The position numbers were made by a program, and so were the translations under genes. A stretch of 64,000 bases of DNA. Origin: a virus (Duplodnaviria; Caudoviricetes). Location of the stretch: positions 14,576-78,575 of IMG/VR virus record IMGVR_UViG_3300014204_000162, one strand, 5' to 3'. The stretch's first letter is position 1. Every line of letters starts with the position of its first letter. The notes under the pieces are model-generated. The model was given only the letters and a program-made list of their open reading frames with translations. It was not told the DNA's origin and did no database searches. Positions 58,927 through 60,935 of the stretch are shown here, piece after piece.

Positions 58927-59025
58927 ATGAAAAAGAAAATAAAGATCAATAGTGAACCTTTGAAAATCATAAAGGTTGAAAAAGGCAAAGGCGGTGAGCC
59001 TGCACGTGTCGGAGAACGTAGTTAA
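58927..59025 (+). CDS. 32-aa peptide with double-glycine motif
   Basis: strong RBS aagggaggtg; MKKKIKINSEPLKIIKVEKGKGGEPARVGERS; absent from ORF track because of length. Confidence 0.55.
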   Translation: MKKKIKINSEPLKIIKVEKGKGGEPARVGERS

Positions 59026-59035
59026 ATATAACAGT

Positions 59036-59803
59036 ATGTCCGAAGATGAGAGTAGATATTTTTTACTCTACTCTCATCTGAACAAATACATTAATAAAGT
59101 TTTAAGGACAGAAGAAAAATTAAAAGAGCTTGTTAACAAATATAATGCTTATGTAGCCTTTAGTGGTGGCAAGGACAGTTGGGTGTTGCTACATATGCTA
59201 TTGCAATATAAACCTGATATATCTGTGATGTTTGCAAATAGCGGCAATGAATACCCCGATACTATTGATTTTATTAATTATGTTGAAAAAAAATATAATC
59301 TAAACCTGTGCGAAATTGAAACTTCTATGTCAATGACTGAAATGTATGAAAAAGTAGGAGCATATCAATTTAAAGATTCAGATAATACATGGGCTGCAAA
59401 TGAGCCTAAGAGGATTTTAATTTATGAGCCTGCAAACGAAATGAAGAAAATGGGTTATAATGCGGTATTTATGGGCTTACGAGCCGATGAAAGCAAAGGC
59501 AGGGCTTTTAATGCAAAGATAAAAGGCATAGAATATCTTTGCCAATATGATGAAATAACACATATGAACCCTTTGAATTCATGGACACTTGATGATATTT
59601 GGGCTTACATTGTACAAAATGGTTTGCCATATAATCGAGTATATGACAAACCTTGGAAAAACGGGAGAAAAGATATAAGGGTTGCAACATATTCGGGCAG
59701 AACTTCAATAACTGAAGGGCGATGGCTATTTATAAAGATGTTTTACCCTGAAATATGGAATGAATTTATAAAGAAATTCCCAATGGTAGGTAGTTTTATA
59801 TGA
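59036..59803 (+). CDS. cysH: CysH/PAPS-reductase-family protein (type IV-B associated)
   Basis: AFSGGKDS PP-loop, FMGLRADESKGR, NPLNSWT.DDIWAYI, YNRVYD. Confidence 0.9.
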   Translation: MSEDESRYFLLYSHLNKYINKVLRTEEKLKELVNKYNAYVAFSGGKDSWVLLHMLLQYKPDISVMFANSGNEYPDTIDFINYVEKKYNLNLCEIETSMSMTEMYEKVGAYQFKDSDNTWAANEPKRILIYEPANEMKKMGYNAVFMGLRADESKGRAFNAKIKGIEYLCQYDEITHMNPLNSWTLDDIWAYIVQNGLPYNRVYDKPWKNGRKDIRVATYSGRTSITEGRWLFIKMFYPEIWNEFIKKFPMVGSFI

Positions 59804-60234
59804 TAAAACAATATTCAAATAATGACTGTGTTCCTGCTCAATTTATCAACGTTTTAAAATACTTTTATACAGATATGATTCCTGCAATGGCTATTGAAAC
59901 TGTATATAGGCAAAGTTTTGACATAGAGAATGGCACAAGCATATACGCAATTATCCACATAGCAGAACTATTGAACTATTATACAGATTTGCATTTTGAA
60001 TGTTATACAAGTGACTTTGAAGCACATTTAAAAGATGAATTATCAAGAAATGGAATAGTAATGGTTGTACGGACTTTTAATAAAAATATGCACGTAGTTA
60101 TTGTCTATAAAATTGAAAATGATATGGTAAAAGTCTTTGATAGCGCAACAAAGTTAGACTCTCAAAGCTATAAAATATCAAAATTGTTATATAAGGCCAA
60201 TATGATTGTATGTGTCAGGAGGGAAAATTTATGA
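59800..60234 (+). CDS. C39-like papain-fold peptidase
   Basis: Q-x5-C (KQYSNNDC), HVVIV, VFDS catalytic pattern. Confidence 0.7.
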   Translation: MIKQYSNNDCVPAQFINVLKYFYTDMIPAMAIETVYRQSFDIENGTSIYAIIHIAELLNYYTDLHFECYTSDFEAHLKDELSRNGIVMVVRTFNKNMHVVIVYKIENDMVKVFDSATKLDSQSYKISKLLYKANMIVCVRRENL

Positions 60235-60935
60235 TTCATTTTGTTATTCCTACTTATAACAGAGATGCTTTTATAAATAGATGCATAAAATCAATAATTG
60301 ATAACGTAAATTCTGAGTTTATCGGATCTATAGTTGTAATCAATCAGAATAAAGAACCTTATAATTTTGCAAACGATGCTATAGTTGAAATAATGTACCC
60401 ACCTGCAGGTAAGGCTATTTATAAGCCAGGAGTAGAAGCAATAAGAGATAAACTAAGTAGCGAAGATATTTTATGTTTTCTTGACGATGATATAGTTATA
60501 AATTCAACATTTCAAAATAATTTTAAGAGGTTAAGCAATAAACTTTTAGAAGAAAAAACAGGTTGTATACAGTTATCTTTTGGAACATGTAAAATACGAG
60601 ATGATTTTGTACCCATACAATATGGTTTTAAAGGTGGAGGAATAGCCGTACAAGTTAAAAAATACTTTGATTTTGATGGCCATGGTGATGATTATTACGA
60701 CGATATTGAACTTTATATCAGAGCTTATATAAAAGGTTATCAAAATTATAGGTGCCGTTTTATTAATTCGCAACATGACTTGAATAAGAAATTGAGTGGG
60801 GGCATTAGAGGTTATTTTAATGATATTTTGGGAATTAAGCGGTGCGGATATAAATATTCAAAACTCAAAGAAACTTATAAGGGATGGTTGTTACCGGCAA
60901 ATAATTTCATGGGATTTAGACTTAAAAAGAGGTGA
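60231..60935 (+). CDS. glycosyltransferase family 2
   Basis: FVIPTYNR..FINRCIKSI; ILCFLDDD DxD motif; YDDIEL. Confidence 0.85.
   Translation: MIHFVIPTYNRDAFINRCIKSIIDNVNSEFIGSIVVINQNKEPYNFANDAIVEIMYPPAGKAIYKPGVEAIRDKLSSEDILCFLDDDIVINSTFQNNFKRLSNKLLEEKTGCIQLSFGTCKIRDDFVPIQYGFKGGGIAVQVKKYFDFDGHGDDYYDDIELYIRAYIKGYQNYRCRFINSQHDLNKKLSGGIRGYFNDILGIKRCGYKYSKLKETYKGWLLPANNFMGFRLKKR

Follow-up and report, generated by a model that had tools for sequence, protein, structure and literature searches.

A conserved lysine-rich micro-protein and a candidate partner peptidase in a phage-borne type IV-B CRISPR-Cas operon

Type IV-B is the only CRISPR-Cas subtype that has no known function: it combines an RNA-binding filament with a CysH-like enzyme of unknown chemistry (PMC8175902). 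Why would a phage carry such a system with a tiny lysine-rich gene, a C39-like peptidase, and a glycosyltransferase next to the cysH-like gene? We asked this of an operon in a 64,000-nucleotide stretch of viral DNA (positions 14,576 to 78,575 of the IMG/VR record IMGVR_UViG_3300014204_000162), which we call the window. A preliminary description had proposed that positions 58,927 to 60,935 encode a small cluster for a peptide of the ribosomally synthesized, post-translationally modified class (RiPP): a 32-amino-acid precursor with a double-glycine (GG) leader, a peptidase to remove the leader, and enzymes to modify the 9-residue core. We found that the precursor gene is real and conserved and that the peptidase looks competent, while the proposed modification of the core does not hold up. 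The best reading, which we hold tentatively, is that a lineage-specific pair of intracellular pro-peptide and C39 peptidase was grafted onto a module of IV-B proteins, CysH, and glycosyltransferase.

Results

The small open reading frame is a conserved gene

The four genes lie where the preliminary description had placed them, and all of its coordinates are correct. The open reading frame (ORF) for the 32-residue peptide runs exactly from 58927 to 59025 on the forward strand, and downstream of it are a PP-loop enzyme (PF01507), a C39-like protein (PF03412), and a protein related to family 2 glycosyltransferases (GT2; PF00535). The ORF had been called unannotated, but the same peptide is already a called gene in public collections.

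The length of the ORF carries no weight by itself, as 168 ORFs of at least 25 amino acids occur in 14 kb. The evidence that it is a gene is of three kinds. First, it has a strong ribosome-binding site, as had been claimed: the Shine-Dalgarno site GGGAGGTG (58914..58921, forward strand) lies 5 bases before the ATG, and its predicted pairing with the 3' end of 16S rRNA (-18.1 kcal/mol) is the strongest of the nine genes in the operon. For the Cas genes, the corresponding values are -10 to -16 kcal/mol.

Second, the gene recurs in two related uncultivated contigs, in both cases next to or between the same genes. A homologue lies between cas7 and cysH at positions 7931-8032 of the viral contig IMGVR_UViG_3300044537_000129 (hereafter L001), where CysH is 71-72% identical and GGGAGGTGG is the equivalent of the Shine-Dalgarno site. 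When 1.84 billion representative proteins were searched exhaustively with a profile, just one further match was found, P0012 (33 amino acids; E = 1.2e-13). P0012 is from a Logan contig of 15,274 bp, and a contig of 15,274 bp is also listed for a CysH protein (P0002, 80% identical) and for a C39 protein (P0011, 65% identical).

Third, the gene changes as a coding sequence would. Across its 32 codons, the window and L001 have 16 synonymous and 8 non-synonymous differences (0.81 per synonymous site, pS, and 0.10 per non-synonymous site, pN); Arg31 is kept through a change from CGT to AGA. At 81% identity to its counterpart in L001, the peptide is better conserved than any other product of the operon (33% to 72%). 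The three sequences share the pattern M-(x)-KKK-h-KI-x-S-x-P-h-K-x-IKV-x-KG-x-GG-EP-x-RVGER-x, in which Gly22-Gly23 (58990-58995) is invariant and is followed by E-P-x-R-V-G-E-R. Judging from the sequence comparisons, and because the gene combines the strongest ribosome-binding site of the operon with recurrence and this pattern of substitutions, the small ORF is a real conserved gene under purifying selection.

It is extremely unlikely that the ORF is an artefact, that is, a chance ORF, the N terminus of CysH split off by a sequencing frameshift, or a read-through tail of Cas7. Such lengths are frequent in this AT-rich DNA, the frames of the peptide and cysH overlap, and the peptide is in the frame of cas7; however, three independent assemblies have the same two-frame layout, and in the frame of the peptide, non-synonymous change is far rarer than synonymous change (dN/dS well below 1). 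The preliminary description had named, as an outcome that would undo the RiPP proposal, a 1-nt error that joins the peptide to cysH. The shared layout of the three assemblies rules this out; it is the peptide frame that is conserved, and none of the CysH homologues, whether near or distant, has such an extension. As for read-through, the frame of cas7 is also that of the peptide gene, with a TAG and five sense codons between them (window 58072-59025). In L001 the frame is the same but there is an extra TGA, and this second in-frame stop between cas7 and the peptide makes a Cas7 tail unlikely.

The clade with the peptide is very rare: it comprises three metagenomic contigs. A profile search of the six-frame ORFs of about 120 other IV-B or cysH loci did not find the peptide, and in IMG/VR a degenerate DNA pattern for it matched only the contig of L001 and, by chance, the inside of one high-GC gene. 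Look-alikes from a protein language model scored 0.75-0.80, which is noise level.

The peptide gene overlaps the probable start of cysH

Relative to the frame of the peptide, cysH is read in +1, and it could start at either of two codons. The ATG at 59036, which is the start in the public gene call (P0001), has no Shine-Dalgarno site (+0.5 kcal/mol). The GTG at 59006-59008 has a Shine-Dalgarno-like GGTGAG at the right distance upstream (58993-58998; -11.9 kcal/mol). These signals (58993..59008, forward strand) are within the peptide gene: GGTGAG is formed by peptide codons 23-24 and the GTG by codons 27-28. CysH homologues begin 5-15 residues upstream of a conserved methionine, and in P0005 that methionine is an isoleucine. 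Also, a block of 23 nucleotides that spans the start signals is identical in the window and L001, while synonymous sites elsewhere are nearly saturated. From these sequence features, we infer that cysH starts at GTG 59006 (gene 59006..59803, forward strand) and overlaps the peptide gene by 20 nt. Because the peptide gene overlaps this probable start, translation of cysH would be coupled to that of the peptide.

We considered whether the identical block might be a conserved RNA structure. Ten weak pairs were predicted, but none of them accounts for the block, which is better explained by the Shine-Dalgarno site and GTG of cysH.

Does the small ORF exist mainly for the sake of cysH? It could be a coupling or leader ORF whose strong Shine-Dalgarno site loads ribosomes for the weakly signalled cysH and whose product has no function. 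The lack of a Shine-Dalgarno site at ATG 59036, the placement of GTG 59006 and its own site inside the small ORF, the end of the ORF 11 nt before the ATG, and the fact that the identical block covers exactly the overlap are all consistent with this. However, the 19 N-terminal codons, which overlap nothing, have 12 synonymous and only 7 non-synonymous differences, and the pattern K-K-K-h-K-I-x-S-x-P-h-K-x-I-K-V is kept in three genomes. The C-terminal G-E-R is also kept, despite the CGT-to-AGA change, and no other product of the operon is conserved as well as the peptide. We consider a pure coupling role to be rather unlikely.

The overlapping part of the peptide also seems to be selected for its own sake. 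A single strand with the same two-frame register could encode both the N terminus of P0002 and the C terminus of P0012, using different codons for Gly, Glu, Pro, and Val. Because different codons fit the same two-frame register, these two protein sequences suggest that the residues G-G-E-P and R-V are themselves under selection, beyond the start signals embedded in them.

A standalone peptidase of the C39 fold

The next gene after cysH (59800..60234, forward strand) encodes a standalone domain of 144 amino acids that matches PF03412 (E = 3.1e-5; 24.2 bits versus a gathering cut-off of 22). Gln4, Cys10, His98, and Asp114 are invariant in three homologues. The catalytic set of the leader peptidase LahT is Gln21, Cys27, His101, and Asp117 (PMC6363468), and the spacing is the same: 6 residues from Gln to Cys and 16 from His to Asp. 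An AlphaFold2 model of the protein (mean predicted local distance difference test score, pLDDT, of 79.8) was compared with solved structures using Foldseek. The top 14 matches in the PDB were the peptidase domains of PCAT1 or ComA, and LahT (6mpz) ranked 20th; the scores against PCAT1, ComA, and LahT were E = 7e-7 to 3e-4, with template modeling (TM) scores of about 0.65. On the basis of the model, the protein has the fold of double-glycine peptidases with an intact catalytic set, and it looks catalytically competent.

The operon does not encode an ATP-binding cassette (ABC) protein or a membrane protein, and the peptidase, which lacks a signal peptide or a wall-binding domain, sits midway in a cytoplasmic Cas operon. 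The peptide and the C39 protein occur together in all three known instances, and neither was found in the approximately 120 other IV-B or cysH loci. When GenBank phages and PLSDB plasmids were searched with the C39 and GT2 proteins, no match was found.

The glycosyltransferase is a partner of CysH

The product of cysH is a PP-loop protein related to 3'-phosphoadenosine-5'-phosphosulfate (PAPS) reductases (PF01507, E = 3.8e-32). The motif SGGKDS is invariant across five homologues, there is no cysteine among the invariant columns, and there is no C terminus of the ECGLH type. It thus fits the description of the IV-B enzyme as a PP-loop gene without the catalytic cysteine of PAPS reductases. Other relatives (P0004 and P0005) are 56-58% identical. 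Two pattern scans of 185,579 species genomes for this clade of CysH found no relative.

The GT2-like gene (60231..60935, forward strand) encodes 234 amino acids. Its score for PF00535 (19.9 bits) is below the cut-off of 23.3, so its assignment to the GT2 family and the GT-A fold rests on structure and motifs. A model of the protein (pLDDT 77.3) had 330 PDB matches with E <= 1e-3, and those listed are GT-A enzymes (E = 1e-8). Three motifs are invariant in five homologues: IPTYNR, DDD (D92-D93-D94), and DD-x-EL (D164-D165-x-E167).

Homologues with 25-34% identity directly adjoin cysH in three other viral contigs. In L118 (876-2997) and L119 (6284-8400), the gene order is cas7-cas5-GT2-cysH, with overlapping stops and starts; in the high-GC contig L120 (516-2268), there is a GT2-cysH pair, with no csf genes detected in the stretch examined. 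All three lack both a C39 gene and any small ORF comparable to that of the peptide. In a quick tree of CysH, the loci with GT2 are scattered among loci without it, and four changes are needed. Because of this scatter, we conclude that GT2 is a recurrent, mobile partner of CysH. Also, because GT2 adjoins cysH in IV-B loci that lack the peptide and the peptidase, its partner is CysH rather than the peptide.

These results bear on the full RiPP proposal, in which C39 removes a GG leader and the 9-residue core is glycosylated by GT2, adenylated or sulfated by CysH, or both, to yield a signal, toxin, or ligand. Parts of it stand: the peptide is real and conserved, the C39 protein has the fold of GG peptidases and looks competent, and the two genes co-occur. 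Furthermore, the four types of genes are contiguous and are conserved together in the window and in L001, the C39 fold and catalytic residues are intact, and the GT-A fold keeps its DxD motif. GG precursors of the ComC type also appeared in a language-model feature search, with a score of 0.75, which is below the noise threshold.

The modification is where the proposal fails. Cys and Thr are absent from the core, and the one hydroxyl acceptor that it does have, Ser32, is replaced by Asp in P0012, which argues against glycosylation of the glycocin type. A GT2 dedicated to the peptide is contradicted by the L118, L119, and L120 loci, and the enzyme is a bare GT-A core of 234 amino acids without a peptide-binding extension. 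CysH is universal in type IV-B (PMC8175902), so its core role cannot be the modification of a peptide. Lastly, no exporter, immunity gene, or domain like the RiPP recognition element was found in the operon. Overall, the full RiPP model is unlikely.

What the peptide and the peptidase may do

In the reading that we favor, the IV-B operon of one small phage clade gained two genes, one for a lysine-rich micro-protein of 32-33 amino acids, probably highly expressed, and one for a standalone C39 peptidase. The micro-protein would be a pro-peptide, and because no exporter is encoded, it would be intracellular. C39 would cut after Gly22-Gly23 and so release two products: a 23-mer with a charge of +8 and a C-terminal Gly-Gly, and a 9-mer with the sequence EPxRVGERx. 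Either the 23-mer or the 9-mer would then act on, or together with, the Csf/CysH machinery. As for the GT-A enzyme, it would work with CysH on a substrate other than the peptide, probably nucleic acid or a ligand that the Csf complex handles.

Several observations weigh against a cleaved pro-peptide. Known GG leaders have Gly-Gly (or GA or GS) at positions -2 and -1, hydrophobic residues at -4, -7, and -12, and Glu at -8, on a helix (PMC6363468). The preliminary description had cautioned that the leader fits this consensus only in part, with Gly at -4, and the misfit extends to Lys at -8 and Pro at -13; relative to the pattern recognized by LahT and ComA, the leader fits only at -1, -2, -7 (V), and -12 (L/I/V). 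Its net charge is about +8, and its alternating K/I pattern suggests a strand rather than a helix. The codons for Gly-Gly-Glu double as the probable Shine-Dalgarno site of cysH, which is a second reason for the two glycines to be conserved. In a library of viral structures, the C39 model is about equally similar to the papain-like wall-hydrolase domains of tape-measure and lysin proteins. An archaeal C39-like protein without GG-peptidase activity has been described, although its Asp is replaced by Asn (PMC13642728). Finally, the three instances are one lineage, and therefore the joint presence of peptide and protease counts as one event in evolution.

Many of these points would fit a different role, in which the peptide is a small basic protein that is never cleaved and instead binds RNA or donates a strand to Cas7, Cas11, or CysH. 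C39 would then have another substrate, which could be a protein (of the Csf complex or the host), a peptide of the cell wall, or even something other than a peptide. The charge and the strand-like K/I pattern, the departures from the GG consensus at -4 and -8, the similarity of the C39 model to lysin and tape-measure hydrolase domains, and the existence of C39-like folds with other activities are all consistent with this. Furthermore, the two halves of the peptide are similarly conserved, and the Csf complex of type IV-B is an RNA-binding filament (PMC7937560, PMC8175902). On the other hand, the peptide occurs only where the C39 gene occurs; the C39 protein, with neither a signal peptide nor a wall-binding domain, is encoded amid a cytoplasmic Cas operon; and its best matches among solved structures are GG-leader peptidases. 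We regard an uncleaved partner as a serious candidate but a doubtful one.

We also considered a more specific role, which is quite unlikely: the peptide might be the first identified substrate of the IV-B CysH-like enzyme. After cleavage by C39, a carboxylate of the peptide would be adenylated and then joined to a target held by the Csf filament. Either the new C-terminal Gly-Gly of the lysine-rich 23-mer would be activated, to give a tag similar to Pup or ubiquitin, or the side chain of the invariant Glu30 would be activated, to form a head-to-side-chain lactam as in lasso cyclases. Lasso cyclases are likewise enzymes of the adenine-nucleotide alpha-hydrolase type. If this role were true, it would reveal the chemistry of type IV-B systems. 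The analogy to lasso peptides themselves (a Cys protease and a PP-loop cyclase, with a 9-residue ring from Gly22 to Glu30) was rejected as a basis for classification: the enzymes belong to other families and a tail of 2 residues cannot thread.

The operon and its carrier

The virus record is 78.6 kb long, with completeness estimated at 78%, and the window makes up its final 64 kb. The large terminase of the virus shares about 34% identity with those of Mu-like Firmicutes phages, among them Faecalibacterium phage Mushu and Bacillus phage BalMu-1, and the source is a tailed phage with a host of the Firmicutes type. A glucosaminidase endolysin and two Bro-N genes are just upstream of the region that we studied.

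The operon reads rightward as csf1-cas11-cas7-[32-aa ORF]-cysH-like-C39-like-GT2-HTH-cas5, with a hairpin at each end. It begins after a terminator-like hairpin (56772..56789, forward strand) that closes the preceding Bro-N gene. Apart from the genes described above, and all on the forward strand, it includes csf1, which encodes the Cas8-like large subunit of type IV (56869..57669; PADLOC Csf1_0_IV, E = 5.9e-35; TIGR03114, E = 2e-13); cas11, for the type IV small subunit (57606..58079; Cas11_1_IV, E = 2.1e-15); csf2/cas7 (58072..58911; Csf2_0_IV, E = 7.9e-59); a gene for a helix-turn-helix (HTH) protein similar to MerR or excisionase (60941..61609), which is in the same operon but outside the cluster as first proposed; and csf3/cas5 (61599..62288; Csf3_0_IV, E = 1.6e-41). 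A palindromic terminator-like hairpin (62298..62319) ends the operon and is shared with convergent leftward genes.

According to PADLOC, the IV-B set of csf1, csf2 (cas7), csf3 (cas5), and a cas11-like gene is complete in this one operon; the TIGRFAM matches of its Cas proteins are all below the curated cut-offs. No cas6 or adaptation genes were found in the operon. The scan for tandem repeats covered the 64-kb window, which runs from about 14.5 kb to the end of the record, and none of the repeats there resembles a CRISPR array. Because of the set of Cas genes and the lack of a CRISPR-like array in the window, we assign the locus to subtype IV-B: it is phage-borne and array-less, with four extra genes between cas7 and cas5. 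The DNA of the operon did not match any GenBank phage.

Several side observations concern the history of the operon. G+C content is 0.29-0.33 across cysH, C39, and GT2 (window 59000-61000) versus 0.39-0.41 in the flanking cas7 and cas5. This drop suggests that the three genes came in as a cassette of other origin. The window (60941-62288) and L001 (9968-10958) have cas5 and the HTH gene in opposite orders, and the HTH protein of L001 corresponds to the C-terminal half only (106 amino acids). A homologue of the N-terminal half is upstream of csf1 in L035 (836-1126). The L035 locus (1357-9016) is the closest outgroup, with a CysH that is 40% identical; its csf1 and cas5 are duplicated, and a 324-amino-acid multi-pass membrane protein (7297-8271) is encoded between its two cysH-like genes. 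Also, a perfect two-copy tandem repeat of 60 bp (window 63878-64000) reaches the end of the window, which is the end of the record; this may reflect either a terminal repeat or an error of assembly.

Discussion

The locus resembles other subtype IV-B systems, such as the Csf complex of Mycobacterium sp. JS623 (PMC7937560; reviewed in PMC8175902), in its Csf and Cas11 genes, its CysH-like enzyme without the catalytic cysteine, and its carriage on a mobile element, as well as in the lack of a CRISPR array, cas6, and adaptation genes in the window. It differs from typical IV-B loci in that cysH is in the middle of the operon, the micro-peptide, C39, GT-A, and HTH genes are extras between cas7 and cas5, and the carrier is a tailed phage. 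The pairing of a small GT-A enzyme with the adjacent IV-B cysH-like gene is shared with L118, L119, and L120. However, the order in the window is cysH-C39-GT2 instead of cas5-GT2-cysH, and a peptide and a protease have been added.

As for the peptidase, it shares with the leader peptidases PCAT1, ComA, and LahT150 (PF03412) the same fold, the same spacing of Gln, Cys, His, and Asp, and the size of an isolated domain (144 amino acids), and, as in those systems, a small gene with an internal Gly-Gly is nearby. Unlike the peptidases of peptidase-containing ABC transporters (PCATs) and ABC transporter maturation and secretion (AMS) proteins, it stands alone, without an ABC transporter in the operon, and the product would stay in the cytoplasm. 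The candidate substrate also differs from theirs in its strongly basic character and in having Gly at -4 and Lys at -8.

Glycocin clusters (SunA/SunS and GccA/GccB) likewise contain a small peptide gene along with genes for a GT2-family enzyme and a C39 peptidase. In contrast to them, the window has no conserved Cys, Ser, or Thr acceptor, no Cys pairs that could form disulfides, and no exporter. The glycosyltransferase is about half as large and lacks the peptide-binding part, and its family also occurs with cysH where the peptide is absent.

A search of the literature turned up no report of C39, GT2, or a micro-peptide in connection with type IV-B. The best available clues to what this subtype does are the accessory genes that its operons have recruited, and this clade offers two handles: a GT-A transferase that is repeatedly paired with CysH, and a micro-peptide that is conserved and has a matching protease. 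Binding of the peptide to CysH or to the Csf complex, or its modification by either of them, would point to the class of substrates on which the system acts. Otherwise, this would still be an unusual arrangement, in which a phage encodes a C39 peptidase that is cytoplasmic and has no transporter, along with a peptide that is a candidate for its cognate substrate.

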